From NCBI GenBank assembly GCA_026983715.1, contig JALSTM010000042.1, forward strand, positions 14,594 to 78,593: a stretch of DNA of 64,000 nucleotides, read 5' to 3'. This DNA is from Desulfobacterales bacterium. GTDB taxonomy: Bacteria > Desulfobacterota > Syntrophobacteria > B119-G9. The position numbers and the translations under genes are program-made. Of this stretch, positions 5,153 to 34,243 are shown piece by piece (the stretch's first letter is position 1; each line of letters starts with the position of its first letter). The notes beneath the pieces are model-generated. The model worked only from the letters and a program-made list of their open reading frames with translations. It was not told the origin of the DNA and ran no database searches.

Positions 5153-7084
5153 TTAAACAAGTCCTATAGTTCCCCCGGACAGGGAAAGACATTCCTCTTC
5201 TATCATCTTGATAAAGTCTTCGGCAGACATCATATCGAGCTGCTTTCCGTCACGAAGCCTCGGTTTTACTTTCTCAGCTTCCACCTCATTATCACCTACC
5301 ACAAGCATGTAAGGTATTTTCTTAAGTTGAGCTTCCCTGATCTTGTAACCGAGTTTTTCATTTCTAGAATCGAGCTCAACCCTAATCCTGGCATCCTTGA
5401 GCTCTCTATAAACCTTTTCCGCAAATGGGATATGCCTGTCAGTTACCGTCAAAACTACCGCTTGCACTGGAGCCAGCCAGGTGGGAAACGCCCCCGCATA
5501 GTGTTCTATTAATACCCCGAGAAATCTCTCAAGAGCTCCAAGAATTACACGATGTACCATAACAGGACGATGTTTCTGGCCATCGGGACCAATGTATGTC
5601 AAATCGAAACGCTCCGGCAACGTAAAGTCACATTGGATCGTTGCGCACTGCCATCTCCGATCAAGGGCATCCTTTAACTTGACGTCTATCTTGGGACCGT
5701 AGAAAGCCCCTTCACCGGGGCATATGTCGTAGGAAATTCCCTTTTGCTTCAAGGCATTTTCAAGGGCACTGGTAGCACGCTCCCAGTCTTCGTCAGTTCC
5801 TATGGATTTTTCAGGCCTGGTGCTAATTTCCATCTCATACGGGAAACCGAAAATATCCATGGTGTGGATCACGAAATCGATTATGCCTATGATTTCATCA
5901 TTGAGTTGCTCCGGAGTACAAAGTATATGCGCATCGTCCTGCGTAAATTGACGTACTCTCAACAAGCCATGCAAAACCCCGGATTTTTCATGCCTGTGGA
6001 CCGTACCGAGTTCAAAATATCTTATGGGAAGATCGCGATATGATCTTATCTGAGATTTATAAATCAGCATGTGAGCCAGGCAATTCATCGGTTTGATGCC
6101 ATAAGATTGGCCTTCAATCTCTGTAAAATACATAAACTCCCGGTAATGATCAAAATGACCCGATTTTTTCCAGAGCTCTGTTTTTAGCAAGGTCGGGCCA
6201 ATGACAAGCTCATACCCCCTTTTCAAATGTTCCTGTTTTTCAAAAGTTTCAAGAATGTGCCTAATCATTGCCCCCTTGGGATGATAGATAACCATCCCTG
6301 CCCCCACTTCATCGCTAAAGCTGAAGAGATCTAATTCCTTTCCGAGGCGTCTGTGATCCCTTTTTCTAGCCTCCTCCAGGTGGGCAAGGTACTTTTTAAG
6401 AGACTTTTTATCCGGAAAAGCCGTGCCGTAGATCCTCTGAAGCATCTTGTTTCGCTCATCACCTCTCCAGTAAGCACCGGCTAGGCCTGTTAACTTAAAA
6501 GCCTTGACATACCCGGTACTAGGAAGATGAGGACCCCGACAGAGGTCAATAAAAGAACCCTGCTTGTACAGAGAAACCGTGTCCTCGTCAAGTTCTTCCA
6601 GTATTTCAACCTTGTAGGGATCATTTCGCTCCTTGAAAAATTCAATAGCCTTGTTCCTGGGCATCTCAATTCGTTCGAAGGGCAAATCAGCCTTTACGAT
6701 CTCGCCCATTTTTTTCTCTATCTTTTCCAGGTCTTCAGGGGTAAAGGTGTGAGGGCTATCAATATCATAATAAAAACCGTTTTCAATGGACGGACCTATG
6801 GCCAGCTTGCTACCTGGGTACAGTTCCTGTACCGCCTGGGCCATGACGTGAGATGCACTGTGCCTGAGGATATCCTTTCCTTCCTCAGAATCAAGCCTAA
6901 CTGGTTCTATTTCGGTATCTTTCTCAACAGGAAAGTTTAGGTCCACGAGACTACCATTCACCCTGGCAGCAACGTATTGCCCACCCTTGCCACCGGTAAA
7001 GGCATCAATAATTTCGCTTACCTTTGTACCCCTCGGGAAATCTTTCTCAGATCCGTTTTGAAATCTAACCTTTATCGCTTCCAT
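5153..7084 (-). CDS. thrS: threonine--tRNA ligase
   Basis: A ThrRS TGS domain begins at [16 protein letters not shown], followed by the class II catalytic core and an anticodon-binding domain. The 654-aa ORF in the track begins at an upstream TTG; the ATG at 7084, preceded by purine-rich AGAGAAGAGGG, is the likely start. Confidence 0.93.
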
Positions 7085-13937: not shown

Positions 13938-15074
13938 TTACAGGTGTTGGTTTTTACTTATACGGTGACTGGAAAAATCGCCCAAGAAACTAATAATCTT
14001 CTCAGCCCTCTTTTCCCAGGTGAAATTCTTGGCTCTTTCGTATGCATTTTGAGCCAGGCTTTCTCTAAATGTCGGGTTTCCAATTAGCTTTTTTATCCCG
14101 TTAGCAAGAGCATCACTATCTCCGGCAGGAATAAGCATTGCTTCCTTTTCAGTTACCATCTCTCTTGTGCTGGGAAGATCAGAAGCAACTATTGCAATCT
14201 TTGCAGCCATATATTCCAAAAGCTTGAGAGGTGATGTAAACCTATTGCCTATCAAACGATCACCGGTAGTGGGGAGGATACCAATGGTGGCTTCTCTTAG
14301 TGCTTCACGAACCTGAAAGGGTGGAATATAGCCCGATACGCTGATTTTTCCATCTCTCTCTAGAATCCTGAAAGAAGGCGTTTCCGTGGCTTGAGCATCA
14401 ATATCTCCGATTACTTTTAGCCTTACTCCTTCAAGCTTCAACATTGCTTCCAAGAGGGTTGCCATCCCTTTCCATTCATACCTAGATGACCCAACGTAAT
14501 AGACTTCACTGCAAGGCTTTGAACAGTCTTTCCCCGATAAATCCTCGACCATCGAAACTCCTGAAGGTACAACACAATGCGGAGTAGACTTACCAAGATC
14601 ACAGACAATTACTTCTTTCAAACCGCGACTTATAAAAACCAGACCGTCAACATGCTCAAACACGTATTTTTCCATGCCGCCAATTTTGGGGTTCTTGTGG
14701 GAAAAAAGCTCGTGAACTTCGTATACCAGCTTAAGATCGGCCGGAATCAACCTTAAGAGTGAATAGGCTACTTTGAGATGACGGGTGTACACGACAACCG
14801 ATGGATCAGATGCTGCAATCTCTTTGATGGCTCTAATTAGCTTTCTCATATATCCGCCGGTCCAGGTAAAGGGACCCCACTTTCTCCTTATGGTCCTCAC
14901 GTGAAGCTTTTGAGATCGCTCTAATCCGTAAAAACTATACACATCTCGATCCATACGTGCAGGATAAAAAAATACGGGCACACGTTTACCCAGCGAGCAA
15001 ACGGTATTCAGTACCTGGATGCTCCTTGCATTCTTCGAGGGTAATTCTTCCGGGTAAGGATAGATTACCAGCAT
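13938..15074 (-). CDS. glycosyltransferase family 1 (GT4)
   Basis: 378 aa. The C-terminal GT1 domain is recognisable (…LLEYMAAKIAIVASDLPSTREMV…) and the gene lies in the LPS core cluster. Confidence 0.8.
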   Translation of the reverse strand: MLVIYPYPEELPSKNARSIQVLNTVCSLGKRVPVFFYPARMDRDVYSFYGLERSQKLHVRTIRRKWGPFTWTGGYMRKLIRAIKEIAASDPSVVVYTRHLKVAYSLLRLIPADLKLVYEVHELFSHKNPKIGGMEKYVFEHVDGLVFISRGLKEVIVCDLGKSTPHCVVPSGVSMVEDLSGKDCSKPCSEVYYVGSSRYEWKGMATLLEAMLKLEGVRLKVIGDIDAQATETPSFRILERDGKISVSGYIPPFQVREALREATIGILPTTGDRLIGNRFTSPLKLLEYMAAKIAIVASDLPSTREMVTEKEAMLIPAGDSDALANGIKKLIGNPTFRESLAQNAYERAKNFTWEKRAEKIISFLGDFSSHRISKNQHL

Positions 15075-16195
15075 CTATGAAAACCTGAGTTTATCACATC
15101 AAAAACTTCATCCACGGATATGAGATTCATACACCATGGAGAATCACAATATTTCCTTACACATGGATTACATGGAGGTACTTTCCTGATCACCTTATGT
15201 TTATGTAGATCCTGATTGGGACCCGTATGTTCTATGCGACTTGGTACAAAAAGGGATACCGTTGGAGTCCCGACAGCAACAGCTACATGGAGTGGCCCGG
15301 TGTCATTAGTTACAAGCAAATCAAAATTTTTTAAGATAGCAGGTAATTCAGACACCTTGTACTTTCCGGCAAGATTTATAACCCTCTTCTTGCTCGCTAT
15401 CCCATCAGCTATATCCTGGCAATACCGTTTTTCCCCCCTCGCACCCAGTAGAACAAGAACGACATCACTGCACTGACGGATAAGTCTTTTGCCCAGGGCA
15501 ATAAACTTTTCTTTAGGCCACACGCAATATTTTTTTGCAGCTAGCGTTTGAAAACCAATGTATTTTTTTGTTCCGGACTCTTCACAAAATTCATGCAACC
15601 TGCTGCTCCATTCTTTTTGGCTTTCTACTTTCACTTCTAGGTAAAGGTTATTAACAAAAGATGCTCCGCCACCCACGATAGTTCTAAGGACATCAAGCCT
15701 TTGCTCAATTGCGTGGTGATCATCAACATAGGTAACCCTTCCTGATAAATATGGAGCAAGTTGGTCGTCTCTAAGGCCACTCCTTAATATAAAGGGGACA
15801 CCGGCAAGATAGGCAACTCCACCCGGACATGGATCGCTGTCATGGAAAATAAGACACAAATCAAAAGATTTTGAGCTCACCCTCTGGTATAAACTCTTAA
15901 GCTTCCTATACCCTCCATGGTAGGGAATAAAATCATCCACACATTCGACTACCCGGAATAGTTCCAGATAGCTTTTTTTCAACAACCATGTAATTTCGGC
16001 ACCAGGGAAAATCGACCTAGTAGAACGGATAGCCGGAAGTGATAACACCGTATCTCCCAAAGCGGTGGAAGAAACCACGAGGATCCTGTTGACCTGTTCC
16101 CTCTTAAGTTCGCTTATCGGGCGAACAGGACCTAGCTTATTCAGCCTTTTTCGAAGTACCAGATCAAATAGCTTACTTTTTATCTTTCTCATCAC
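15065..16195 (-). CDS. ADP-heptose:LPS heptosyltransferase (GT9)
   Basis: 376 aa. GT9 signatures are present: ILVVSSTALGDTVLSLPAIRS and LVTNDTGPLHVAVAVGTPTVSLF. Confidence 0.85.
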   Translation of the reverse strand: MMRKIKSKLFDLVLRKRLNKLGPVRPISELKREQVNRILVVSSTALGDTVLSLPAIRSTRSIFPGAEITWLLKKSYLELFRVVECVDDFIPYHGGYRKLKSLYQRVSSKSFDLCLIFHDSDPCPGGVAYLAGVPFILRSGLRDDQLAPYLSGRVTYVDDHHAIEQRLDVLRTIVGGGASFVNNLYLEVKVESQKEWSSRLHEFCEESGTKKYIGFQTLAAKKYCVWPKEKFIALGKRLIRQCSDVVLVLLGARGEKRYCQDIADGIASKKRVINLAGKYKVSELPAILKNFDLLVTNDTGPLHVAVAVGTPTVSLFVPSRIEHTGPNQDLHKHKVIRKVPPCNPCVRKYCDSPWCMNLISVDEVFDVINSGFHRCW

Positions 16196-18099
16196 GCCTT
16201 AACATCAAAAACCGATATCCAGTTTGCCAGGATATAAAGATTCCATAATTTCTTGGCAATCCTCGTGTTGTTTTCACGACTCGCAGAAATAAGGGCTTCT
16301 ATTCTTTTTTTATCAAAAAGAGAATAGAAAACATCCCCTTGTTCCAGGATTATTTCAGTGACGTGCATATTTAAGGGCCCGACTATCCAATTTACCAGCG
16401 GAATACTGAATCCCTTTTTTTTCCTTTCAAAAAAGGAGCGGGGTATCCGATCCGTGAAAGCGTCCTTCAATAGCCGTTTACTATTTTTCTTCCCTTTTAA
16501 GCGGAAGGAAGGAGGTAACCGGAGAACAAAATCAATTACATTGTGATCCAAAAAGGGCGATCTTGTTTCAAGACTGTGAGCCATAGACATTGTATCCACA
16601 TAATGCAGGATATCTCCGGGGAGATACGTCTTAAGGTCAATATATTGAAGCCTTGTAAGCAGAGGGATATCCTTACCTGGGTCCCATTGAGTAACTGTAT
16701 AATAGGGCAAGTTCTTTTCAATTAAGGGATAAAGTGGACCGCCTTCATTATAGCAAGAGAGTTTATCCTGAGAATTGAACACCGTTAGAAATGCCAGATA
16801 AGGAAAATCCCAAATGTCAAGTAACGCCATATCACTTGCACTGACAGGGAACCTGAGGTGCTTTCTGCCAGGGTTAAGCATTCCCTCCGCCTTGCAAACT
16901 ACACGTCGCAGTAAACCGTATACGTTTTTTAATCCAGCTGAATGCAACCTCGCTACTCTTAAATACTGGCTGTATCTCTTGTACCCGGCAAAAGCTTCAT
17001 CTCCCCCGTCACCGGAAAGAACGACCTTGACATCCTTCGAAGCCACCTCGCTCATGTAAAAGAGAAGTATGCTGGTTTCATTGCCGAAGGGCTCACCGAA
17101 TCGCTTAACAATTTCGGGAACAATTTCAATTATTCGAGGTTCAACAATCACTTCAAGGTGATCCGTGCCGAATTTCTTTGCTATCTCCCTTGCATAAGGA
17201 AGCTCGTTGAATTTCTGCTCCTGAAAACCTATCGAAAAAGTTTTAATGTTACTTGCCTCCTGGGCCATGGACGCAACCACCAACGAAGAATCAACACCAC
17301 CGGAAAGAAAGGCTCCGACAGGGACATCCGCAACCATTCTGAGCCTAACCGCTTCATCAAAGAGTTCTCTAAAATGCTCCAACGCTTCACCGTACGAAAG
17401 ATCAAGTGGCTCGAAAATGTCTATATCCCAGTACGATTCGTATCGTAGAATCCTTCCTCCCTTAACTAGCATGAAATGTCCAGGTAAAAACCTTTTTACG
17501 TTTTTTACCGCCGTGCGAGGAGCATTTATGTAACGAAAGGACAAGTAGAGATCAATGGCTTCCGGATCAAGTTCCATGGATACAGGGGCGAGCTCGATAA
17601 GTGCCGGAATTTCAGAAGCAAAATAAAATCCGGAGTGGTCATGGTAATAAAAAAGCGGTTTTACACCCAGCCTATCCCTCGCAAGGAAAAGAGATTCTTC
17701 CTTCCGGTCATATATAGCAAAGGCAAACATGCCATTAAAAAGCCGAAGACATTTTTCCCCGTAGCGGGCGTATGCTTCGAGCAATACCTCTGTGTCGCTA
17801 CTGGTCCTAAAGCTTACTCCTTCTTTCTCAAGCCTATCCCTTATGCTTTTGAAGTTGTATACTTCACCGTTGTAAACGACTTGGTACCGACCCGAACTGT
17901 CAGACATGGGTTGATGGCCGCTTCGAATATCTATTATTGAAAGCCTCCTATGCCCCAGGGCAACTGAGTTCTCAAAAAAGAAACCCTGTTTGTCTGGGCC
18001 TCTATGTGCAAGTAACCTGCAAGCTTCGGCCACTTTTTCTCGGTGAGGCTTATCGTTTAAAGTTCTATTAACCCCTACTATTCCACACAATTCTATCAC
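16192..18099 (-). CDS. asnB: asparagine synthetase (glutamine-hydrolysing)
   Basis: 635 aa. The N-terminal Ntn glutaminase motif MCGIVG is present as (M)IELCGIVG, and the synthetase PP-loop is AFLSGGVDSSLV. Confidence 0.9.
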   Translation of the reverse strand: MIELCGIVGVNRTLNDKPHREKVAEACRLLAHRGPDKQGFFFENSVALGHRRLSIIDIRSGHQPMSDSSGRYQVVYNGEVYNFKSIRDRLEKEGVSFRTSSDTEVLLEAYARYGEKCLRLFNGMFAFAIYDRKEESLFLARDRLGVKPLFYYHDHSGFYFASEIPALIELAPVSMELDPEAIDLYLSFRYINAPRTAVKNVKRFLPGHFMLVKGGRILRYESYWDIDIFEPLDLSYGEALEHFRELFDEAVRLRMVADVPVGAFLSGGVDSSLVVASMAQEASNIKTFSIGFQEQKFNELPYAREIAKKFGTDHLEVIVEPRIIEIVPEIVKRFGEPFGNETSILLFYMSEVASKDVKVVLSGDGGDEAFAGYKRYSQYLRVARLHSAGLKNVYGLLRRVVCKAEGMLNPGRKHLRFPVSASDMALLDIWDFPYLAFLTVFNSQDKLSCYNEGGPLYPLIEKNLPYYTVTQWDPGKDIPLLTRLQYIDLKTYLPGDILHYVDTMSMAHSLETRSPFLDHNVIDFVLRLPPSFRLKGKKNSKRLLKDAFTDRIPRSFFERKKKGFSIPLVNWIVGPLNMHVTEIILEQGDVFYSLFDKKRIEALISASRENNTRIAKKLWNLYILANWISVFDVKA

Positions 18100-18285
18100 C
18101 TACTAAAAATCAACGTAACGTAAACACATTACAAGTATTTACCAGAACCTCTTAATTGATTCATCCCTTACAATCAACCGTGTCCCTAAAAGATTAACAC
18201 CAATAATTATCGAAGAATTATCGTTTCTAATATGCTAATAAGGTAATACATGGATCTATCTACCTGAACAAAAATATGAAAATTC

Positions 18286-19395
18286 ATGTTGACTGCCACA
18301 TCAACAATCATTTTAAAACGGAAACAAACAATAACAGTGCAAGAAAAGAAAGTGAAGTCGGAAGAGATTAAAAATATCTTGATAATTCGCGACGACCACC
18401 TTGGAGACCTCATATGCTCTCTTCCCACAATTGTAGCATTGAGGAAACATTTTTCGCACAGTATGATCACGATTGTGGTGTCTGAATCATGTAGGGAGAT
18501 AGTAGAAAATCACCCTGCGATCGATTCTGTCCTGGTACGGATAAAAAAGAAAAGAGGTTTCTTCAGCAAAACCATAAATTTTTGGGAGAGAATCAAACTG
18601 CTCCACACGATAAGGAAGGGAAAGTTCGATCTCGTTGTAGCTCTTCGGTCCAGATTCTGTACCAGGCATGCATTGATGGCCGCGTTTTCCGGAGCTCCAT
18701 TAAGGCTTGGACACAGAAGCAAAAAGAAAAAGCATGTCCTTCTTAACGGGGCATTTAATATATTTCCCTCGCATTTCAATCAGGAACAGCACGAGCTTAT
18801 GCGAACCCATGACATTGTGAAGGAAATCGATGTTCCACTTAACGAAGTAGTTTTCGGCCTTCAAACAAAACCAGAGCATGATTACACTGTATCCGAATTC
18901 CTGGAAACCAGGGGCATCCGAGAAGATCACCTCATTATCTGCTACCATGTGAGCGCATCTAAGCCGAAAAAACAGTGGCCACTGGAAAACATGGTATCGT
19001 TGATTAACCTTGTCCAGAACAATTATCCCGACATATTTAATGTTCTAACATATGATCCCTTCAACTCGCGGCACAAGGATTTCCTGGAACAAAACTTAAG
19101 CGGTGAAATAGCAGTTTTTGAAAGCAAAGAGTTCATGCAACTGGCTTCACTTTACCGAAAGTGTGATGTCCTGGTATCACTAGACGGTGCTCCCATGCAC
19201 CTTGGTGCAGCACTGGGAGTACCGACTCTTGGCATTTTCGAAGCCGAAAACACAATGTACTGGGCTCCCTGGGGAGAGAAAAACGCATCCATCTCGGGAA
19301 GGGGAGAAATAAACAGCCTTCTCCCGGAGGAGGTCTTTGAGAAACTGGATAAATTGATCAAGACTCATGCGTTAAATAAAACTAAGAAACTCTAA
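18286..19395 (+). CDS. LPS heptosyltransferase (GT9)
   Basis: 369 aa. GT9 signatures are present: LIIRDDHLGDLICSLPTIVAL and VSLDGAPMHLGAALGVPTLGIF. Confidence 0.85.
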   Translation: MLTATSTIILKRKQTITVQEKKVKSEEIKNILIIRDDHLGDLICSLPTIVALRKHFSHSMITIVVSESCREIVENHPAIDSVLVRIKKKRGFFSKTINFWERIKLLHTIRKGKFDLVVALRSRFCTRHALMAAFSGAPLRLGHRSKKKKHVLLNGAFNIFPSHFNQEQHELMRTHDIVKEIDVPLNEVVFGLQTKPEHDYTVSEFLETRGIREDHLIICYHVSASKPKKQWPLENMVSLINLVQNNYPDIFNVLTYDPFNSRHKDFLEQNLSGEIAVFESKEFMQLASLYRKCDVLVSLDGAPMHLGAALGVPTLGIFEAENTMYWAPWGEKNASISGRGEINSLLPEEVFEKLDKLIKTHALNKTKKL

Positions 19396-19607
19396 TAAAT
19401 TCAAGTTACCAGAATTAATGGATCGACCCATAAAAAATTTGCAACAATCTGTCGCAAGGAGTCTGCAAAATTCAGACGATTCAGCAATCTATTTGTAGTA
19501 TCAACGTCATGGAAATTGCTTCGCTGCGCTTGCAACGACTGTGCTTTAGCTTTTTGTTTGAAACAATATCTAGGAAGCCCCCTCTGGAGAGCAATTAAAG
19601 GACTAGG

Positions 19608-21182
19608 ATGAGGACAATTCAAAATTTGCCAGAAGTGTTTAAAGAGCTTCCAGGTACTTCCTGGATTTCACGAAACGAAGAGGAACTCGAAGAGTTTCTA
19701 ACCACACTGCAGGTTGGTAAAGCCCGCAAAGTAAAATCATCCACACATAGATTGGTGGTAGAAGCTGATAAGTTTTATTTAAAGGTATTTTGTAACGCCA
19801 ACCCCTTGGGCAAATTTAAACTCTGGTTTCACGACATGGCACGTCGTGAATGGGAAAATGCAAAAAAACTGTTCGACTCCACAAGGCTTACAGCAGAACC
19901 TGTTGCGTTCGGAAGATCCCGGAATTTCTCGTATTTCGTAAGTAAATCCCTCCAACCCTGTGAGTCCCTTTCGGCATTCGTCCCTGGTAATTTGAATACC
20001 CTTTCTCTGAAGCAGAAGAGGGCACTGATAGAAGCCTTTTTAGAATTCCTGGAAAAACTCCGGGGTTGCGGTTTTTTCCAGCCGGATTTCCACCTTGATA
20101 ATATTCTCATAATAAGTAAAAACGACGACGGGTATCAATTCTACATAATTGATTTACACAGGGCTTCCTTTACCGATGCACCCCTTGTGTTTTCAAAATG
20201 GGCTGAACAACTAACCTACATTTTGCCTTGTTTTGATTTCTTACCCTACGGGGATTTGAGACGGTTTTGGGTCATGCTGAAAAAACGATATCCCGAGATG
20301 GAAAAATACCTTCCATACGTAATCAGCAGGTCATACTCCCGCATGAGAGTTCACTGGTGTAAAAGGGAAAAAAAGATAAGACACGGGGAACATAGAATTA
20401 ACCACGAGAAATTTGAAGGTTATCTTAAGCCTGATAAGCTACCCGAAACTATAAAGAAGCATCTAGTAGCTGAACCGGAAAACTTATTTCTCTTTTGCAC
20501 TAACATATACAAGGATTCCAGGAGTGCCAAGATAGGGAGCCTTGAATACAAGGGTAACAGGTATATTTTCAAGAGGTATAACAGGAGAGGCTTCCTGCAC
20601 TCGCTAAAATACAGGTTTAGAACATCAAGAGCCTTATCTCACTGGGAAAAAAGCATCAAATTCATTTATCGCAACCTACCCACGCCAGAAATACTTGCGG
20701 CCATAGAAGAGAGAAAGCGTGGTTTTCTTCACATAAGCTACGTCCTGTCTGCAATGGTCGGTGAAGGGGAAAGTGGCTTCAGAAATCACATGGACTATCT
20801 GGAAAGAAATTCACCAGAAGCTCTAAGACACCTAGTTTTAATGGTCTGGGAAATGCACCAACGTGGCATATACCATGGAGACGCCAAGCTTTCCAATTTC
20901 ATACGGGATCCCGGCGTGCATAAATACGGGTACTATGTTATCGACCTTGACGGTTCTCGATTCAAAAGATCGGTAAACGCTTTTGAGCGACTCTGTGATC
21001 TGGCCGACCTTGCGTCATCCATTGAGTTTTTTGGTATTATTGATAACCCTTCAGGAATCATCTTTAACTATTACTTCAGCCTTGGAGGAGAATCCCCCAA
21101 GTACCTATCATTAAAGCGGAAGTTTTTCTATTACCAGGTGAAGAAGAAACTCAGTCACAAAAGAAGAAGACAGCTGGGCTAA
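19608..21182 (+). CDS. lipopolysaccharide kinase (Kdo/WaaP) family protein with tandem kinase-like domains
   Basis: 524 aa. Two kinase-like halves are present, one around IIDLHRASF and one around YHGDAKLSNFIRD…YVIDLDGSRFK. The protein lies in the LPS core locus. Confidence 0.65.
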   Translation: MRTIQNLPEVFKELPGTSWISRNEEELEEFLTTLQVGKARKVKSSTHRLVVEADKFYLKVFCNANPLGKFKLWFHDMARREWENAKKLFDSTRLTAEPVAFGRSRNFSYFVSKSLQPCESLSAFVPGNLNTLSLKQKRALIEAFLEFLEKLRGCGFFQPDFHLDNILIISKNDDGYQFYIIDLHRASFTDAPLVFSKWAEQLTYILPCFDFLPYGDLRRFWVMLKKRYPEMEKYLPYVISRSYSRMRVHWCKREKKIRHGEHRINHEKFEGYLKPDKLPETIKKHLVAEPENLFLFCTNIYKDSRSAKIGSLEYKGNRYIFKRYNRRGFLHSLKYRFRTSRALSHWEKSIKFIYRNLPTPEILAAIEERKRGFLHISYVLSAMVGEGESGFRNHMDYLERNSPEALRHLVLMVWEMHQRGIYHGDAKLSNFIRDPGVHKYGYYVIDLDGSRFKRSVNAFERLCDLADLASSIEFFGIIDNPSGIIFNYYFSLGGESPKYLSLKRKFFYYQVKKKLSHKRRRQLG

Positions 21183-21991
21183 AGCTTATTTTTAATCGTG
21201 TGCTTCTCTATTTTCTCCTTTTTTCTGAAAATTTTCGCAATTAAATGCCCATCGTGCAATACCCCGTATTTTTCGAAAAAGTACTCGAGCTCTTCTTTAG
21301 TAAGGCAAGATGCAGAGAAACAAAACTGTGCCAGATCTTTCACTCGCCATCTTTCAGGCAAACTTCCGGAATGAACCATGACTCTCTGGTTATCGATAAT
21401 AAAAACCCTCGGAACATCACCCTCGAACCTGACCAGGAAATGGCAAAGGTAGAGGTCCTGATGATTTATGCCTGAATCGTGCATTTTTCTTACTATTCGT
21501 GCAAGCTCTTCAACCAGGAGTTTCCTGCGGACTCGTACTGCTTCACCGGAATCTGGCTGAAATTTTTCAAACCAGTCGCAGGCCCGGATAATGTTTTCAA
21601 TGGCAAGAGTCATGGTAAATGACCTGCCTTGACATTCTCCATAGGCCACTGGAACCGCGGTAGGAACCCCTAGGCGGTTAAGATAAACAAGGGCTTCCCA
21701 TTCGTTCCTAGCACCGAAAATAGGTCTTGTAAGCCGAATGATTTGCTTAAAATATTCCGTAATAGGTGACCGCAGGTATCTTTTGAGGAAGCAATTTACA
21801 GCTCCATCTTGGCTATCGAGGGTGATCTTAGTGGTGTACCTTTCTTTTAGTGCTTTCTTCACGATCCTTCCACCGGAGAATCGCATGATGGCGTCGAAAG
21901 TCCCAAGATCGTTTTCAAGGAGTAATCTTTCGAAATCGGAATTTACAATTAACCTGCCGCGATCCAGGGCTTTGGTTTTAATCCTGTTCAT
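21179..21991 (-). CDS. lipopolysaccharide kinase (Kdo/WaaP/InaA family)
   Basis: 270 aa. The motifs MHDSGINHQDLYLCHFLV and RVFIIDNQR resemble the Kdo kinase / WaaP family. Its stop overlaps the neighbouring kinase gene. Confidence 0.7.
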   Translation of the reverse strand: MNRIKTKALDRGRLIVNSDFERLLLENDLGTFDAIMRFSGGRIVKKALKERYTTKITLDSQDGAVNCFLKRYLRSPITEYFKQIIRLTRPIFGARNEWEALVYLNRLGVPTAVPVAYGECQGRSFTMTLAIENIIRACDWFEKFQPDSGEAVRVRRKLLVEELARIVRKMHDSGINHQDLYLCHFLVRFEGDVPRVFIIDNQRVMVHSGSLPERWRVKDLAQFCFSASCLTKEELEYFFEKYGVLHDGHLIAKIFRKKEKIEKHTIKNKL

Positions 21992-23124
21992 TTGCTTAGA
22001 CCAAGTTCTTTTTCAAAAACTGCCAATGTCTGACTGGCATTCTGTTCTATAGAATATTTTTCAGCTTTAAGCCGAGCCTGCCTTCGCATTTTACCCTTTT
22101 CACTCGCTGGCAGTAGTACAAAATGATATAGTTTTTCCACCAGTTTCTCAACAATTCTCCGGGGTTCATCTATCACGTAGCCGTCAACAGACTCAGTTAT
22201 TAGTTCTGAAGCACCATTATTAACCGTAGTAATCACTGGCGTCCCACACGCCATGGCTTCCAGACATACATTTGCAAAAGGGTCGTACCTGGTGGGCAAA
22301 ACAAAAATGTCCGCAGATCGATAGTAGTCTTCGACATTCGATACTTCACCAACGAAGAAAACTGAATTGCCTATACCAAGTTTTCTAACTTTTTTCTGGT
22401 AAGTTTTTTTTCCATCCTTCCCCACAACCACGAGTTTTAAACCAACTCCCCTGGATTTAAGTATCGCGATGGCATCAAGCAAGTAATCCAGTCCCTTCCT
22501 TTTGAAATCCATGGAAACAAAGAGAAGTACAGTCTCGCTTCCATCCAACCTTAGTTCCTCTCGAACCCTGCCCTCTCCTGGAGAGAACCTCTCTAACTCG
22601 ACACCGTTATAGACAACGTATATCCTGCTAGCTGGGTAATTGTAAGTGTTCACCACCTGAGATTTCACAAGTTTAGAATTGGTTATGATAATCCGGGTAT
22701 TTTCCGGATTTAAGATATTTTTCTCCAGGGAGAGTATCACCCTGTGCCGCGGATTAGCCTGTTCCAGTAATCTTCGGAGTTTCCCAGGATAACGCACTTT
22801 CATCCACTGCGCGTGCAAAGGATCGGACACTCTGAAGGCATCCACGGGGTATGTCCTGGACAGCGCGTAGCTCCAGTCAGGCCGGATTTCACTGAGAATC
22901 CGCTGGCAGTTTTCATGAAACGAGAGGTTTTTTGTAGAGGAACTTCTATTCTTTACATGAACGCGAACGTGTTTGATACCACCACAACTGCTATCATCAA
23001 ACTTGTTACTTAGAACGTACACCTCGTGTCCCATGGACGCCATTTCGGCACAGAGGTTCATACAATAGCGTTCTGCTCCACCCTTGAAGAAGCCACATTC
23101 TTTTCGAACTATCGCTATCTTCAA
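21988..23124 (-). CDS. glycosyltransferase family 1 (GT4)
   Basis: 378 aa. The GT1 C-terminal domain is present (…FVLPTRYDPFANVCLEAMACGTPVITT…). Confidence 0.8.
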   Translation of the reverse strand: MKIAIVRKECGFFKGGAERYCMNLCAEMASMGHEVYVLSNKFDDSSCGGIKHVRVHVKNRSSSTKNLSFHENCQRILSEIRPDWSYALSRTYPVDAFRVSDPLHAQWMKVRYPGKLRRLLEQANPRHRVILSLEKNILNPENTRIIITNSKLVKSQVVNTYNYPASRIYVVYNGVELERFSPGEGRVREELRLDGSETVLLFVSMDFKRKGLDYLLDAIAILKSRGVGLKLVVVGKDGKKTYQKKVRKLGIGNSVFFVGEVSNVEDYYRSADIFVLPTRYDPFANVCLEAMACGTPVITTVNNGASELITESVDGYVIDEPRRIVEKLVEKLYHFVLLPASEKGKMRRQARLKAEKYSIEQNASQTLAVFEKELGLSK

Positions 23125-23152: not shown

Positions 23153-25324
23153 TCAGTGTCTTCGACTTTTTATTTTTTCTATCTGGCGGGTTAGATCAAG
23201 CATGGTAATGCGCAAATCTTCGGGAGACTTTTCTCCCTTAATCCCTTCCCGCATGGCACCAAGTGCCGCTTCCTGGCACGCAGCAGCTATGTCGGCACCT
23301 GAAAAGCCTTCCCCGGCCAAGGAAGCAAGTTTAGCAGTGTCTATCTCCTCTTCCACCGGCTTTCCTTTGAGGTGGATTTTAAATATTTCTTCCCTTGCTT
23401 TCTGATCGGGCATGGGTAACTCAAGAACCAGGTCAAAACGGCCTGGACGGAGTAGCGCAGGATCCAACAGTTCCGGGTGAGCAGTAGCCGCCAGTACTAT
23501 CACTCCCGTAAGCTTTTCAATGCCATCCATTTCGTTCAAAAACTGGCTTACCATTCTCTGGCCCACCTCGTTGTGGTACACACCACTTCGAATTGCGGCA
23601 AAAGAGTCTATCTCGTCGAAAAAAATAATACACGGTGCAGAAAGTCGTGCCTTTTTAAAAACGTCGCGAATCCCTTTTTCACTTTCGCCAACGTACTTTG
23701 AGATAAGTTCCGGGCCCTTTACCGCTATGAAATTCACCCCGGATTCCCTTGCCACGGCCTGGGCAACCAGCGTTTTCCCAGTTCCATGGGCGCCTGTTAA
23801 CAGCACACCCTTTGGAGGTTCACAGCTCAGGGCCTCAAAGTATTCCGGGTACCTTATTGGCCATTCTATCGCCTCCCTTAACTTTTCCTTTACCTCATCA
23901 AGCCCGCCAATATCTCTCCAGTGAATATCGGGGACCTCAAGAAATACTTCCCTTATGGCCGAAGGTTCTATTTCTTTCAATGCTCCCAGAAAATCTTCCT
24001 GCGTAACGGTTATTTTTTCAAGGAACTCCTCAGGCAGACGTTGATTTTCTGACTCAATTTCCGGCATAAACCTCCTGATTGCATTCATCGCGGCTTCTCG
24101 GCACAGTGCGGCAAGATCGGCACCGACAAAGCCGTGAGTTCTCCTGGCCAGTTCTTTCAAATCAACATCTTCGTCCAGAGGCATTTTCCTGGAATGAATT
24201 TCTAGTATCGCCTGCCTCGCCGTAGCTTTTGGTATTGGTATAGCAATTTCCCTGTCAAAGCGTCCAGGTCTTCTTAGCGCGGGGTCTAGAACGTTCGGGA
24301 TGTTGGTAGCTCCTATAACTATTACCTGTCCCCGCTGCTCAAGCCCGTCCATGAGAGCCAGCAACTGAGCCACCACTCTTTTTTCAACTTCCCCTTGGAC
24401 TTCCTCTCGTTTCGGGGCAATGGCGTCAATTTCATCCAGGAATATAATTGCAGGTGCTTCTTTGGTAGCTTCTTCAAAAATCGTCCTTAGCGCCGCTTCG
24501 CTCTCACCGTAATACTTGTTCATTATTTCCGGCCCGTTTATCAGGAAAAACCTGGCATCAACTTCGTCAGCTATGATTCTCGCCATCAGAGTTTTACCTG
24601 TTCCGGGAGGACCATGCATTAGAACACCTTTTGGGGGATCAACGCCAAGGTGTTCAAAAAGCTCAGGATGTTTAAGGGGAACTTCAACTATTTCCTTTAC
24701 TTTTTTCAGTTCATCATCAAGTCCACCTATGTCTTCATAAGTTAAGCGGGTCCTTCGCTCCACTTCGTACTGCATCTCTCCGCCTCGACCGATAATTTCT
24801 ATCGCGGTCTGGGGGCCTACAAGTGCAACCGGCATGGGAGGATCTATGGCACTAACAATGAAAGAATGAGGGTGAGAACCCTTTTCTTTTATCCCGACTC
24901 GATCTCCTACCACAAGGGGACGATCCTTCAGAATTTCCTCGATTTGCTTTTCGCTGTGCATCCTGCATTCTGCACACCCGGAAAAATCAAGTATGACTCG
25001 CCCGGCAATACCTGGATTCGCTCTACGAATGGATACCTTTTCAAACAGATCCGTTCGAACGTTTTGCCTTGCTTCATCGTTAAGATGTATCACCCCCCTA
25101 GTTTCACGTTCAGGAGGGATTGCAACCACGCGAATTGCACTTCGTCTCCTGCCCAGGATCTCGATATAATCGCCAGATTTAGCTCCAATCAGAGCCAGGT
25201 CTCTAGTGCCGACCCTCGCTCGATAAGCGTGTTCATCTTCGGGGAATGCTTTTAAAACAATGAGCTGTAGCGTCTTCCGGCTGGTTTCTTGAACAGAATC
25301 TGACATTTTGCGTTCGACTTCCAT
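23153..25324 (-). CDS. CDC48/VCP-like double-AAA+ ATPase with N-terminal double-psi barrel domain
   Basis: 723 aa. There are two Walker A boxes ([13 protein letters not shown] and [13 protein letters not shown]) with second-region-of-homology and arginine fingers. The N-domain ([23 protein letters not shown]…[12 protein letters not shown]) resembles CDC48_N. The start could alternatively be at MSDSVQ (25306). Confidence 0.85.
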
Positions 25325-25384
25325 AGGATTTTTGAGTTAATAATAAATGGCATCTGTAATTTGGTCAAATAGAGTGTTGGCTTT

Positions 25385-25444
25385 CACCACAGAGACACAG
25401 AAAACCCAGAGATGATTATTCTTTTTTGTCTGTTGCGAGATACC
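25385..25444. repeat. 60-bp direct repeat, left copy, flanking the GxxExxY gene
   Basis: The string caccacagagacacagaaaacccagagatgattattcttttttgtctgttgcgagatacc is repeated at 26070–26129 with 2 mismatches. It contains the hairpin ttgtctgt…acagacaa. Confidence 0.8.
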
Positions 25445-25535
25445 AACAGACAAAATACTCTACTGTTGTCGAAAACGACAACAGTACAACTAACCGAGAT
25501 ATCTTAATGCAAGACCTTTTTTTCCTAGGTGTAAA

Positions 25536-25922
25536 ATGATTACCGACAACATTAATAGACTGACAGGAATAGTTATCGGGTGTGCCATCGAAGTCCACAA
25601 AGCGCTTGGACCAGGATTATTAGAGTCTGCATACGAGCAATGCTTATGTCACGAGTTAAAAATAAGAAAAATACCATTTGAGAGACAAAAAGCTGTACCC
25701 ATAACCTATAAAGGAATAAAACTTGATTGCGGGTACCGTTTGGACATGGTGGTAGCAAACCGGCTCGTACTTGAGATTAAGGCTAGCGAAGAGATTTTAC
25801 CCATACACGAGGCCCAGATTCTAACATATTTGAAGCTAACCGGTATAAAATGCGGACTGATTATTAATTTTAATGTCCCCGTATTAAAAGATGGTATTAA
25901 ACGTTTGAGGCTATTTGATTAG
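25536..25922 (+). CDS. GxxExxY family protein (PD-(D/E)xK nuclease-like)
   Basis: 128 aa. The sequence MITDNINRLTGIVIGCAIEVHKALGPGLLESAYEQCL…LVLEIKA matches the GxxExxY-type family (GLLESAYE) and a PD-(D/E)xK-like core (D-x-V…E-I-K). Confidence 0.75.
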   Translation: MITDNINRLTGIVIGCAIEVHKALGPGLLESAYEQCLCHELKIRKIPFERQKAVPITYKGIKLDCGYRLDMVVANRLVLEIKASEEILPIHEAQILTYLKLTGIKCGLIINFNVPVLKDGIKRLRLFD

Positions 25923-26069
25923 AAAAATTATAGCATGCCACGAAGTGGCATGAGGTTTTTCTCCAATCGGCATCTCCCGATTGGAGAAAAAATAAGCACA
26001 AACTCAGTGTACTCTGTGACTCTGTGGTTAATTTTAAACAAAATACAAAAATCTCTTGACTTCAATTTC

Positions 26070-26129
26070 CACCACAAAGACACAGAAAACCCAGAGATGA
26101 TTATTCTTTTTTGTCTGTCGCGAGATACC
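26070..26129. repeat. 60-bp direct repeat, right copy
   Basis: It matches 25385–25444 (58/60 nt) and abuts or overlaps the 5' end of the MoxR ORF. Confidence 0.8.
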
Positions 26130-26164
26130 GAGCTATAGCAGACATCGAAATGGAGGAGAGCTAC

Positions 26165-26986
26165 ATGTACTTTTCTGGAACCGATCGTTATTATCTCACT
26201 AGAGAACTCGAAGAAATAGTGAACATTGCAATCCAGATGGAAAAACCGCTTCTTTTAACCGGTGAAGCAGGAACCGGCAAAACGCAACTTGCCTTTGAAA
26301 TCGCTCGCTCTCTCAGGTTGAAAATGGAAGAAGCGCGCTGCAAATCAACGTTCCGAGGTGAAGAACTTTGCTACGTGTACGACACTGTTCTGCGCTTGAA
26401 TGATTCAAGGTTCGGTAGCGGGGAATCTGGTAGAGACGTAAACAACATCTGGGACTACCTGAGATTTGGTCCCATCGGGCGGGCATTCCTGGCAGAAGAC
26501 AGGCGGGTTTTGTTGCTTGATGAAATAGATAAAACTGACTCGGACACACAGGATAACCTCCTTGATGTCCTGGAAGATGGGTCATTTATCATTCGAGAGA
26601 TCAACCACAAGGTGGTTGCGAAGAAACGCCCCATAATTATCATTACCAGCAATGCCAAAAGAGAACTATCCGATCCGTTTTTGAGGCGTTGTTTTTGCCA
26701 CCATATTCCATTTCCGTCACCAGAAGAAATGGCACACATAATAAGACTTCATTTTCCCGACATAACTGATGAATTTCTTTTTCAATCAATCGACGTTTTT
26801 TACGATCTGAGAGCAAAAAATTTCGAGAAACTTCCTGCAACCGCGGAGTTGATCGACTGGATAGGGGCAATGAAATCAAGTGGTTGCCAATCTCCAAGTC
26901 GAGACGGAAAAATTCCCTACGTGGGAACTCTGCTCAAGAGAACCCGGGATATTATCAAGTTCAGGAATATGGTAGCCAGGAAATGA
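26165..26986 (+). CDS. MoxR-family AAA+ ATPase (CoxD/CbbQ/NorQ-like, AAA_5)
   Basis: Walker A box LLLTGEAGTGKTQLA and Walker B box VLLLDEIDKT are present with sensor motifs. The ORF in the track starts at TTG 26111 inside the repeat. The ATG at 26165 (MYFSGTDRYYL), preceded by GGAGG at -8, is the likely start. Confidence 0.85.
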   Translation: MYFSGTDRYYLTRELEEIVNIAIQMEKPLLLTGEAGTGKTQLAFEIARSLRLKMEEARCKSTFRGEELCYVYDTVLRLNDSRFGSGESGRDVNNIWDYLRFGPIGRAFLAEDRRVLLLDEIDKTDSDTQDNLLDVLEDGSFIIREINHKVVAKKRPIIIITSNAKRELSDPFLRRCFCHHIPFPSPEEMAHIIRLHFPDITDEFLFQSIDVFYDLRAKNFEKLPATAELIDWIGAMKSSGCQSPSRDGKIPYVGTLLKRTRDIIKFRNMVARK

Positions 26987-28194
26987 CAAAAATGCTGGTT
27001 TCGTTTTTATATCATCTGAAAAACAGGGGAATACCAATAAGCGTAAAGTACGCCATGGAATTGGTGGAAGCCGTACAGAGAGGCCTTGCCCCGGATCTCC
27101 AGAGATTCTTTATCTTAGCACGGCTTATTTGTGTTAAGAAAGTGGAACATTACGATGCTTACGAACAGGCCTTCGCTTCGTTTTTTCTAGGGAAGGAGTT
27201 CAAAGGGGATCTAAAAAAAGAATTTGATATTCTAAATTCACCCCTTTTTAACAGCTGGCTTAAGCGTGAAATAGAAAAGGGGAATCTCAATAGGTCTTCA
27301 ATTCACAAAATCCCCCTACCGGAACTTCTGGAAAGATTCTGGAACACACTCCTCGAACAAAAAGGAGAACACCATGGGGGGCACCGGTGGATTGGTACAG
27401 GAGGAACCTCCCCTTTCGGGCATTCAGGAAACAGCGCCGTAGGCGTAAGGGTGGGGGGAGAAGGAACACATTTTTCAGCCCTCAAGGTTATCGAGAAGCG
27501 CCGTTACATCGATTATGCATCTGGTTCATCCATCAGGATGGAAAACCTGGGCCAGGTACTACAGGCGCTCAAGAACCTTGCACCGGTGGGACCAGAAACA
27601 GAGCTCGACGTTGAGGAAACTATTTATCGAACCGCCAAAAACGGTGGCGAAATTGAACTGTATTTCAAAAGAGAGTTAAGAAATAAGCTAAGGATTCTGC
27701 TTCTTCTCGACAATGGGGGCTATTCCATGACCCCTTATACTAACCTTGTAAGCCTTCTATTTGGTAAGCTCAGGCACATCTTCGAAGACGTGGAAACGTT
27801 TTACTTCCACAATTGCATTTACGGTTACGTTTACATAAACCCGGAAAGAACCAGGTCTCTTCCGTTACAAGATTTCCTCTCCAAGGAACCCGATAGTAGG
27901 GTGATTATCATTGGTGATGCCAACATGGCCCCCACAGAGCTATTTCTGTCCGATGGGGCAATCGATTGGGAAACAAACGAAAGAATAACCGGGCTCGAAT
28001 GCTTACAGAAGATTGCTGAACATTTCAAGTGCTCAGTCTGGCTCAATCCAATTCCGAAGTTCAAATGGAAAAGCCAGAGTCCGACGATTGAAAGTGTTGC
28101 CAGAGTCTTTCACATGGAAGATCTAACACTGGACGGGATAAAAAATGCCGTGGAATACCTGAACGAAAGGGGCAAAATATATTCGAAAAACTAA
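26983..28194 (+). CDS. CoxE-like VWA domain protein (partner of the MoxR ATPase)
   Basis: A CoxE/COG3552-like N-terminus (…LVSFLYHLKNRGIPISVKYAMELVEAVQ…) precedes a C-terminal VWA-like region (LRILLLLDNGGYSM…IIIGDANMAP). The ATG at 26983 overlaps the MoxR stop (ATGA), so the two genes are translationally coupled. Confidence 0.75.
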   Translation: MTKMLVSFLYHLKNRGIPISVKYAMELVEAVQRGLAPDLQRFFILARLICVKKVEHYDAYEQAFASFFLGKEFKGDLKKEFDILNSPLFNSWLKREIEKGNLNRSSIHKIPLPELLERFWNTLLEQKGEHHGGHRWIGTGGTSPFGHSGNSAVGVRVGGEGTHFSALKVIEKRRYIDYASGSSIRMENLGQVLQALKNLAPVGPETELDVEETIYRTAKNGGEIELYFKRELRNKLRILLLLDNGGYSMTPYTNLVSLLFGKLRHIFEDVETFYFHNCIYGYVYINPERTRSLPLQDFLSKEPDSRVIIIGDANMAPTELFLSDGAIDWETNERITGLECLQKIAEHFKCSVWLNPIPKFKWKSQSPTIESVARVFHMEDLTLDGIKNAVEYLNERGKIYSKN

Positions 28195-33376: not shown

Positions 33377-33805
33377 ATGGAAGAAAGAGCTATTTCAATT
33401 GAACAAATTTCAAACTTCTTGGCGGAGAACCTTAGACAAGAAAAGAGTATACTTGTCGTTTATGTTTTTGGTTCCTACGCAAGAGGCGACACACACCCGG
33501 AATCAGACCTGGACCTTGCTTTCTTAGTGGACGAAAAAAGATATAAAACTGATCCTTTCGATGCCACGGCTCCAGCACACATAATATCTGCTAATATTGG
33601 AATCAAGTTCGACATAGAAACCGATGTAACGATTTTAAATTCCGCATCCATCGAAATGGCTTACGACATAGTAACAAAGGGCAAGTGTGTTTATTTTAGA
33701 GACGAAGACAAGAAAATCGAGTATGAAATAAAAATACGCAGCCTTTATTATGACTTCAGGCCCTTTCTTGAAGAACTTCGAAAAAAAACAATAGCCGAAC
33801 TTTGA
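33377..33805 (+). CDS. nucleotidyltransferase-domain antitoxin (MntA-like)
   Basis: 142 aa. The minimal nucleotidyltransferase motifs are present (VYVFGSYARGDTHPESDLDLAFLV). It lies immediately upstream of a HepT-like gene. Confidence 0.8.
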   Translation: MEERAISIEQISNFLAENLRQEKSILVVYVFGSYARGDTHPESDLDLAFLVDEKRYKTDPFDATAPAHIISANIGIKFDIETDVTILNSASIEMAYDIVTKGKCVYFRDEDKKIEYEIKIRSLYYDFRPFLEELRKKTIAEL

Positions 33806-33814
33806 AAGGAGACC

Positions 33815-34243
33815 ATGAAAACTCTGGAAAAGAAAATCCAGATTTTGAGAGAACGTATTAAAAGGCTCAAAGATATTTCCGCAAGAGCAAAATCGTTTGC
33901 CGATTATCAAAGATCCTACGATTTAAAAGACATGACTGAAAGAAACGTACAGGTTGCCATCGAAGCCTGCCTGGATATAGGGAAAATAATTATTTTCAAA
34001 GAAGGCTTAAAAGAACCGAAAGACAATAAAGGGATTTTCGTAATACTAGGTGAAGCAGGGATAATCAGCAGAGACCTCACTTCCTTTTTGATTCCGATGG
34101 CGGGCACACGCAATATTCTCGTACACAGTTATTACAAAATTGAAAACGGAATCATGTATGGAATATTGAAAAGACACATTGAGGATTTTGAAGCGTTTCT
34201 ATCAGAGATAAAGAGAAATTACCTTCAGAAGCACCAACACTGA
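33815..34243 (+). CDS. HepT-like (DUF86) RNase toxin
   Basis: 142 aa. The R-x4-H-x-Y motif RNILVHSYYKI is present, and the gene is paired with the upstream nucleotidyltransferase, as in type VII MntA/HepT modules. Confidence 0.8.
   Translation: MKTLEKKIQILRERIKRLKDISARAKSFADYQRSYDLKDMTERNVQVAIEACLDIGKIIIFKEGLKEPKDNKGIFVILGEAGIISRDLTSFLIPMAGTRNILVHSYYKIENGIMYGILKRHIEDFEAFLSEIKRNYLQKHQH

Follow-up and report, generated by a model that had tools for sequence, protein, structure and literature searches.

A GxxExxY nuclease gene framed by inverted heptamer boxes between the CDC48 and MoxR genes of a Desulfobacterales bacterium

We analysed a stretch of 64,000 nucleotides from a Desulfobacterales bacterium (assembly GCA_026983715.1, contig JALSTM010000042.1, positions 14,594 to 78,593, forward strand; called the window hereafter), in which a gene for a small GxxExxY protein lies between divergent genes for a CDC48-family and a MoxR-like AAA ATPase. 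An original prediction made from the letters had noticed two long direct repeats on either side of this gene and had tentatively read them as a duplicated site for attachment or recombination. The cassette ends not in the direct repeats but in two inverted boxes of tandem heptamers at 25383-25411 and 26003-26031. Between them, from 25383 to 26031, the cassette runs in the order left box, hairpin, gene, hairpin, right box. The direct repeat is the cassette's own left terminal module present twice, and the second copy is seen only in this lineage. The window element belongs to a widespread class of small GxxExxY cassettes framed by palindromes. For this family, the window cassette included, we favour as the overall explanation a selfish element acting at the level of DNA, similar to miniature inverted-repeat transposable elements (MITEs) or to homing genes, and consider it probable.

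Results

Inverted heptamer boxes frame the gene

A repeat search of the window returned an inverted pair, 25383-25430 against 25984-26031, the outer parts of which are the two boxes. Their form is three tandem 8-nt units, TTCACC-ACAGAGN-CACAGAGN-CACAGAG; more generally, a box consists of TTCACC and about three tandem 8-nt units, each made of a CNNNRAG heptamer and one free base. The box pattern CCACAGAGNCACAGA, with at most one mismatch allowed, gave three matches in the window, at 25387 (plus strand), 26013 (minus strand) and 26072 (plus strand), where 0.01 were expected. The left box (25383-25411, plus strand) reads TTCACC followed by the units CACAGAG-A, CACAGAA-A and (A)CCCAGAG. The right box (26003-26031, minus strand), recovered by both the inverted-repeat search and the box pattern, reads TTAACC-ACAGAGT-CACAGAGT-ACACTGAG and aligns with the right boxes of four other loci described below (L193, L194, L058 and L064).

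Inward of each box stands a perfect hairpin. The left one (25424-25455) has a 12-bp stem, TTTTGTCTGTTG/CAACAGACAAAA, and the loop CGAGATAC, and its DNA fold scores z -4.4. The right one (25956-25991), found by the repeat search and by the DNA fold (z -6.0), has a 15-bp stem that is 100% complementary and the minus-strand loop GAGATG; it is conserved in L058, L064 and L193. A GGAGAY loop characterises the subfamily of the window, in which each box is backed by such a hairpin. The sole convincing open reading frame (ORF) between the repeat copies, at 25536-25922 on the plus strand, encodes the 128-residue GxxExxY protein. Its match to TIGR04256 reaches 154.8 bits (cut-off 35) and that to PF13366, PDDEXK_3, reaches 147.8 bits (cut-off 22), in agreement with the original prediction that it is the only supported gene of the segment.

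The direct repeat is a second copy of the left terminal module

The paired direct repeats were confirmed and proved slightly longer than the 60 nt first given: one repeat family of 63 nt, at 25382-25444 and 26067-26129 on the plus strand, with 60/63 positions identical (95%). A 26-nt core occurs at these two places only in the 64 kb, with 0.00 expected by chance. The same arrangement is found in an independent ENA assembly (L057, obtained through the 99% twin protein P0002), which is 99.93% identical over 20.4 kb; exact look-ups of the window's own GxxExxY and CDC48 proteins, and of the 100%-identical P0001, returned no record. The agreement of the two assemblies, together with the three positions at which the repeat copies differ, makes an assembly artefact unlikely. 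The left copy comprises the first 63 nt of the cassette, that is, the left box, a linker, and the 5' arm and loop of the left hairpin. On the left it begins at the end of the element; on the right it stops at the boundary between the hairpin loop and the 3' arm, 25444 being the first base of that arm. The right copy starts 36 nt beyond the right box and consists of a solo extra left box (26068-26096), the linker and half a hairpin. A hairpin had been assigned to each repeat; this stands for the left copy, with the 3' arm outside the repeat, and fails for the right copy (z -0.2). The right copy had also been thought to overlap the 5' end of the MoxR gene. This applies only to the longest ORF, which opens at a TTG at 26111 and mis-extends the MoxR start in the window. 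Homologues and the gene caller on L057 both place the start at the ATG at 26165, preceded by GGAGGAG at 26152-26158, and the repeat ends 35 nt upstream of it.

History of the site in relatives

The comparison set comprised 56 MoxR loci from species-representative genomes (about 600 kb); two further loci, L193 and L194, were reached through protein look-ups. Among the 56, CDC48 is the divergent neighbour of MoxR only in L001, where MoxR is 90% identical in amino acids and the CDC48 N-terminus 81%. The two genes are 92 nt apart there, and the spacer matches the window through the CDC48 promoter-like region, up to about 25371. It contains neither a GxxExxY gene nor a repeat copy, and neither was found in any of the 56 loci. 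This bears out the earlier view that a cassette was inserted into the divergent CDC48/MoxR region. L194 (87%) has a gene-less element at the same site: the left box is followed by a hairpin with the loop GGGAGATA, after which come a small terminator-like hairpin and then the right hairpin and box. To judge from its sequence, the junction would be compatible with loss of the ORF by deletion between two CT(C)TGC microhomologies. L193 (93%) carries a full cassette, with the left box at 511-537, a hairpin, a gene for a 126-residue GxxExxY protein, the right hairpin and the right box at 1168-1196. About 60 nt of native leader, devoid of a third module, separate that right box from MoxR, and another element end lies upstream of the cassette.

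The left and right modules align across the window, L193 and L194. The L193 leader (aagctataaattctaagg...ATG) aligns with the window from 26130 onwards (gagctatag...ggaggag...ATG), and the right edge of the right repeat copy (26129|26130) is therefore an exact junction with host DNA. In the MoxR tree the loci group as ((window, L193), L001), L194. Two histories agree with this: an early arrival of the element at this site with a loss from L001, or two hits on the same site. The nucleases of the window and of L193 are 76% identical, with a nonsynonymous divergence (dN) of 0.18, compared to 0.045 for MoxR, and saturated synonymous sites. Despite this saturation the non-coding left module retains 62/77 identical positions, which argues for constraint on the module.

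Nucleotides 1-500 of L193 were remarkable in their own right. The CDC48/MoxR spacer exceeds 1.2 kb in this genome and holds, besides the cassette, at least two more pieces of elements: a mini-element of the CGCAAAG variant lies at about 58-167, and a right module stands on its own at 421-487. It is within this repeat-rich stretch that the contig starts (ends).

These sites bear directly on the proposal that the two 60-bp repeats are duplicated attachment (att) or recombination sites, or a long target duplication, around a site-specifically integrated cassette. Direct repeats do flank the gene and the segment is missing in a relative. An att site would, however, be expected to leave a single repeat copy at the empty site, and the L001 spacer has none; the L193 cassette, moreover, lacks the right copy. 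The left copy is a conserved terminal module of the family and its true partner is the mirrored, inverted box at 26003-26031, inside the segment that the repeats were supposed to bracket. On L057 no recombinase was called within 10 kb on either side, and flanking direct repeats accompany only 4/66 cassettes. The att and target-duplication reading is largely refuted by these observations, and we consider it extremely improbable.

Origin of the extra module

Because the two copies differ at just 3/63 positions, the extra copy is either recent or kept similar by conversion. Where flanking direct repeats of at least 25 nt occur in the family (the four cassettes out of 66), they are always box modules, and L193 is the mirror case with two right modules. 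Elements following each other tail to head, a right box and shortly after it a left box, were seen in L193 and L198, and L084 has tandem gene-less copies. An origin of the extra copy by slippage or duplication is possible. One such reading is an ordinary local rearrangement with no step specific to the element: a 685-bp tandem duplication of the cassette, most of the second copy being deleted afterwards, or gene conversion acting on the remnant of an older adjacent element. The 60/63 identity, which indicates a recent event or homogenised copies, speaks for it, as do the tail-to-head adjacencies and the recurrence of direct repeats built from modules. Two steps are required, however; the sequences preceding the left and right copies are unrelated, and the copy begins at the element end and stops where the hairpin loop meets the 3' arm, which hints at an event dependent on ends or structure. 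We regard a purely local rearrangement as unlikely.

A regulatory role of the duplicated module was also considered, in which a copied promoter or operator restores MoxR expression that was cut off by the cassette and its terminator. A terminator-like hairpin with a T-run (CATGCCAC-GAA-GTGGCATG, 25934-25962, plus strand, consensus scan) follows the GxxExxY gene 12 nt past the stop codon, so that MoxR would need a promoter within 25960-26164; an equivalent small hairpin precedes the right modules in L193 and L194. The right copy lies at a suitable place, 35 nt ahead of the MoxR start, and a weak hybrid promoter, TTGTCT-17-TATAGC, can be read by eye across the junction. Against this, the consensus scan placed a plus-strand promoter-like site in neither copy, for which reason the idea of a portable promoter was dropped. 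L193 has the same operon layout without the extra module, and boxes come as inverted pairs on either side of genes, an arrangement atypical for a promoter. We consider a regulatory role very unlikely. The 63-bp direct repeat itself is a minor, lineage-specific by-product.

Boxes at other GxxExxY loci

Some annotated homologues of the protein carry N-terminal extensions such as 'HHRGTEGTE' or 'SHRGHRG', which are translated CACAGAG-type repeats; the boxes thereby explain these spurious extensions. In three unrelated homologues (L058, L064 and L068) a left box stands upstream and an inverted box downstream of the GxxExxY gene, the cassettes sitting within polysaccharide or exosortase operons. 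The right hairpin TCCAATCG-GGAGACGG-CGATTGGA is common to L058 and L064. Boxes were present at 4/4 distinct loci reached through close homologues. Across about 720 kb of loci, double boxes were found at every GxxExxY gene and essentially nowhere else, and they are essentially absent from about 600 kb of related loci that lack the gene.

A metagenome protein scan added 80 GxxExxY loci, whose proteins are 53-68% identical to that of the window. The density of strict CACAGAG boxes was 1.22/kb in the 450-nt flanks of the genes versus 0.15/kb farther out, and most apparent exceptions carry variant heptamers (CGCAGAG, CACGGAG, CGCCGAG, CGCGGAG, CGCAAAG, CACGAAG or CATGAAG). Different GC content as the cause of these variants was rejected, since the GC ranges of the loci overlap broadly. 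With a generalised box, defined as two adjacent CNNNRAG units differing by at most one position, 50 genes with full flanks were evaluated. An upstream box in the sense orientation was found for 40 of them, a downstream antisense box for 41, both for 35 and at least one for 46, while boxes in the wrong orientation occurred in just 7 and 9. The majority heptamer was identical in both arms in 36/50 cassettes, compared to 8.3 expected and a maximum of 16 in 2000 shuffles. The original prediction would have been weakened by finding the repeat to be a common element present upstream of many genes; this is nearly the case, the box motif standing upstream of GxxExxY genes at many unrelated loci. Neighbouring genes are mostly co-oriented with the cassette (45/53 upstream, 40/49 downstream), a bias consistent with residence in operons.

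In some compact cassettes almost no free spacer is left: the right box lies between -30 and +30 nt from the last codons of the gene (L068:3372-3400 and several others), the left box can lie 0-30 nt from the start codon, and the minimal unit measures about 480 nt. GxxExxY cassettes also recur in or beside clusters for cell-envelope polysaccharides, as in L058, L064 and L068. In the window, such a cluster with Kdo-kinase-like genes and GT4/GT9 glycosyltransferases spans about 15000-23100; elsewhere the cassette lies between the genes for EpsI and the exosortase EpsH, or beside epimerase, GT2 and deacetylase genes.

Gene-less versions

A scan of viral contigs for the DNA pattern returned at least 120 box-bearing loci (about 1 Mb). 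Among the matches listed, 323 double-box matches correspond to 313 boxes after merging of overlaps and form 87 neighbouring convergent pairs; the gene-less pairs are mostly 44-180 nt apart and constitute palindromic mini-elements with variable centres. Several related gene-less copies often share a contig (L080, L115, L145, L158). The GxxExxY family itself is scarce in the viral collection, with 5 loci.

L084 shows at 5767-6094 three tandem gene-less box elements with a 120-nt period; elements can also amplify as tandem arrays. In L076/L093, L099, L135 and L162, all viral, boxes 200-410 nt apart enclose ORFs of 51-112 residues, often on the opposite strand, and these gave no Pfam match. They may be cargos of another kind, or simply genes that happen to lie between two elements.

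The GxxExxY protein

In an alignment of 47 sequences the residues G27xxE30xxY33 (G27-L-L-E30-S-A-Y33), D70, E80-I-K82 and Q94xxxY98 are invariant. The AlphaFold (AF2) model (predicted local distance difference test, pLDDT, 90.4; predicted template modelling score, pTM, 0.83) has an alpha/beta nuclease fold. Its best matches among solved structures in Foldseek are the Cas4 protein SSO0001 (4ic1, E 1.9e-3, 24% identity, TM 0.47), LHK-Exo, the Cas4 protein Pcal_0546 and lambda exonuclease, and PADLOC gave weak matches to Cas4 hidden Markov models (E about 2e-3). A sequence search of the PDB returned no match for the protein, nor did PHROG. From motifs and model, the protein looks like a minimal RecB/Cas4-type nuclease core. 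It appears catalytically intact, since the catalytic motifs are invariant, the model is confident and resembles Cas4 and lambda exonuclease, and dN is 0.18 while the synonymous divergence (dS) is saturated. The cysteines C36, C38 and C65, also invariant in the 47 homologues, may form a metal site other than the four-cysteine cluster of Cas4. A homologue search at E <= 1e-10 yielded at least 8000 candidates.

A palindrome in DNA or a stem in RNA

The main rival to a DNA-level element is an RNA-level element resembling an intervening sequence (IVS), whose boxes would pair in the transcript over about 27 bp; RNase III would cleave this stem and free the cassette mRNA from host read-through. The extra left box would then be an alternative partner for the right box, just upstream of MoxR. 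The minimum-free-energy RNA fold lends this some weight: it closes the whole 666-nt element by pairing the left with the right box (z -7.3), and once the extra copy is included, the right box pairs with the extra left box instead. The Coxiella IVS offers a parallel (28-bp terminal stem, three tandem GACAGAT heptamers at the 5' end, cleavage by RNase III; PMC4990558), and the co-orientation of cassettes with neighbours that are often only a few tens of nucleotides away also speaks for it.

The pairing statistics point the other way. In 13 instances of the hairpins, 9/12 stem pairs show compensatory changes and there is no G:U pair. Among the arm mismatches of 48 gene-oriented cassettes, those compatible with G:U pairing show no excess on the sense strand (45 versus 54, p 0.42), and 115 are of the transversion type. 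Mismatch between the arms amounts to 4.4% at heptamer positions and to 51% at the spacer base of the unit, where pairing is accordingly not selected. The window cassette, in addition, has its own terminator-like hairpin ahead of the right box. By these indirect comparisons the hairpins behave as exact DNA palindromes, and the statistics favour a DNA-level palindrome over an RNA stem, with a heptamer kept or copied as a motif in six places. The RNA-level reading appears rather doubtful to us on this evidence.

In the DNA-level explanation that we favour, boxes and hairpins would be the ends of a selfish, MITE-like element family. Its full-length form would be the copies that carry the gene; the palindromes without one would have arisen by internal deletion and would multiply within genomes. 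The nuclease might be the element's own enzyme or selfish cargo; it would break DNA at or near the palindromic ends, and host repair would resolve the breaks in a homing-like manner. The extra left end in the window would be a by-product, either an aborted or partial second copy halted at the stable hairpin or the stump of an adjacent second element.

Several observations weigh against this explanation. Beyond the RNA fold just described, mobility was not apparent in the look-ups, every identical GxxExxY protein looked up coming from a single locus, and the 64-kb window contains no further box and no GxxExxY paralogue. No transposase or integrase accompanies the cassette: its only gene encodes the PD-(D/E)xK protein, and none was called in the 10-kb flanks on L057. 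No target-site duplication is definable from the four orthologous sites (L001, L194, L193 and the window), whose junction is not resolved to the base. Among the 120 box-bearing loci listed from the viral collection, none has a GxxExxY gene. The heptamer variant, moreover, is not tied to protein similarity (58.4% versus 58.2% mean identity; 5/11 pairs at 75% identity or more differ in heptamer), so the nuclease probably does not recognise the variable heptamer positions and could be no more than cargo. The extra module, for its part, may be a partial second copy stopped at the hairpin, a second-element stump or the product of a tandem duplication with deletion.

A bolder reading, which we think unlikely, is that GxxExxY nucleases and heptamer palindromes together form a self-propagating system not yet described, a PD-(D/E)xK counterpart of RAYT/REPIN or of homing endonuclease genes. 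The Cas4-like nuclease would cut the box and hairpin ends, and host repair would copy the gene or a gene-less palindrome into new sites. If true, such a system would explain why thousands of GxxExxY genes are spread over bacterial phyla, and would connect their mechanism with that of the intervening sequences of 23S rRNA, which have long lacked an explanation.

Host flanks and other features of the window

The left host flank is the CDC48-family AAA ATPase gene (23153-25324, minus strand; TIGR01243, 841.5 bits, cut-off 802.65), whose orthologues adjoin MoxR in L001 and L194. A sigma-70-like promoter candidate for it, TTGACC-17-TATTAT, was found by consensus scan at 25340-25368 on the minus strand; the stretch tttttgagttaataataaatggca...ggtcaa at this candidate is kept as host flank in L001 and L194. 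The same kind of scan, as the only indication, gave a terminator-like hairpin with a T-run at 25461-25486 on the minus strand. On the right, the MoxR-like AAA ATPase gene (AAA_5; 26165-26986, plus strand; 273 residues according to the gene caller on L057) is followed by a VWA CoxE-like gene. The longest ORF of the latter, 26884-28194, opens at a TTG at 26884 and overlaps MoxR by about 100 nt; on the twin contig the protein has 400 residues (L057 11457-12659, equivalent to 26992-28194 of the window), and the real start is probably 26992. Farther away, at 33377-34243, two adjoining ORFs of 142 residues, annotated on the twin as NTP_transf_2/Polbeta and HepT-like, resemble an MNT/HepT toxin-antitoxin pair.

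Discussion

The GxxExxY/PDDEXK_3 family is extremely common, yet it is listed as being of unknown function; the accessible part of one survey has PDDEXK_3 as 'unknown, multiple transfers'. In the accessible parts of the open-access literature, GxxExxY occurs only in what appear to be passing mentions, and the box sequence was matched nowhere; no Rfam family corresponded to the element class at gathering or permissive thresholds. The cassette family is very widespread and apparently undescribed. Treating the gene and its concerted inverted heptamer arrays as one unit provides a genomic context and testable hypotheses for the GxxExxY family, and the boxes may also explain the short contigs around GxxExxY genes.

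Among known mobile elements, insertion sequences and transposons were rejected, the only cassette gene encoding a 128-residue PD-(D/E)xK protein and not a transposase. An att-flanked island or an integron cassette was likewise set aside, as L057 has no tyrosine or serine integrase within 10 kb and the empty site has no repeat. With integron cassettes (ORF plus attC) the element shares a small, apparently promoterless ORF that is mostly co-oriented and bounded by co-varying imperfect palindromes, but its palindromic modules stand on both sides in inverted orientation, arrays of cassettes are absent, and there is no IntI or attI nearby.

The protein resembles Cas4/RecB nucleases in its D...ExK and QxxxY motifs and in its best structural matches, which are Cas4 and then nucleases of the lambda-exonuclease type. 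It differs from Cas4 in having half the size, in the absence of the four-cysteine Fe-S arrangement and in a Foldseek TM of about 0.47; Cas4 proper is excluded by context, there being no cas genes among the neighbours in the gene calls of L057.

Short units with terminal inverted repeats in intergenic DNA are a property shared with MITEs and with REP/BIME, ERIC, Correia and RU-1/2 elements. The cassette has the terminal inverted repeats, the small size and the lack of a transposase by which MITEs are recognised, and, as with MITEs, gene-less copies seem to multiply within a genome and look like internal deletions of a longer form (L194 compared with L193). There is no second copy in the 64-kb window, and there are several related gene-less copies per contig elsewhere (L080, L115, L145). 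Unlike these elements, the cassettes end in arrays of a heptamer whose six copies all change together, the family is found across very diverse metagenomes and not in one genus, and the full-length form encodes a 125-residue nuclease in place of a DDE or HUH transposase, with no definable target duplication. The RAYT/REPIN system offers a parallel in organisation, as a single small nuclease-type gene lies between inverted repeat copies that also occur gene-less as inverted doublets. It differs from the cassette in protein fold, which is PD-(D/E)xK (PF13366) here and not HUH-Y1; in addition, GxxExxY genes occur in multiple, divergent copies, heptamer variant and protein do not change together, and no GxxExxY gene lies near the 313 viral-contig boxes listed.

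Genes of the PF05635 family, the cargo of 23S rRNA intervening sequences, also occur outside rRNA, and those at L058:5860-6372 and L280-L289 are preceded by tandem motifs (GGCGCAAGGAA twice; CCTTAAGG twice plus TGAGG-type units) and by imperfect inverted repeats. A chassis shared with the GxxExxY cassettes was not shown, the motifs in L058 from 5960 and in L280-L289 being others than CACAGAG. Two scans of the viral collection returned no PF05635 relatives.

Of the elements described so far, the 23S rRNA intervening sequence carrying an S23p (four-helix-bundle) ORF, known from Leptospira and Coxiella, comes closest. The Coxiella IVS measures 428 nt and has a 28-bp terminal stem; its tandem heptamers (GACAGAT) number three, with variation between strains, and RNase III cuts it at the first heptamer repeat (PMC4990558). 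The cassette differs from such sequences in its location, an intergenic spacer or operon between protein genes and not helix 9, 25 or 45 of 23S rRNA (the window contains no rRNA), in its cargo, a PD-(D/E)xK nuclease and not PF05635, and in pairing statistics that lack RNA-type covariation. Both are elements of about 0.4-0.7 kb with one small ORF and with terminal inverted repeats that can pair over about 28 bp, and both have a 5' end of about three tandem heptamers in varying number, GACAGAT in the IVS and CACAGAG here. The IVS is regarded as selfish with an unknown means of spread, and the same holds for the cassette. The cassette family may provide a bridge to the 23S rRNA intervening sequences.

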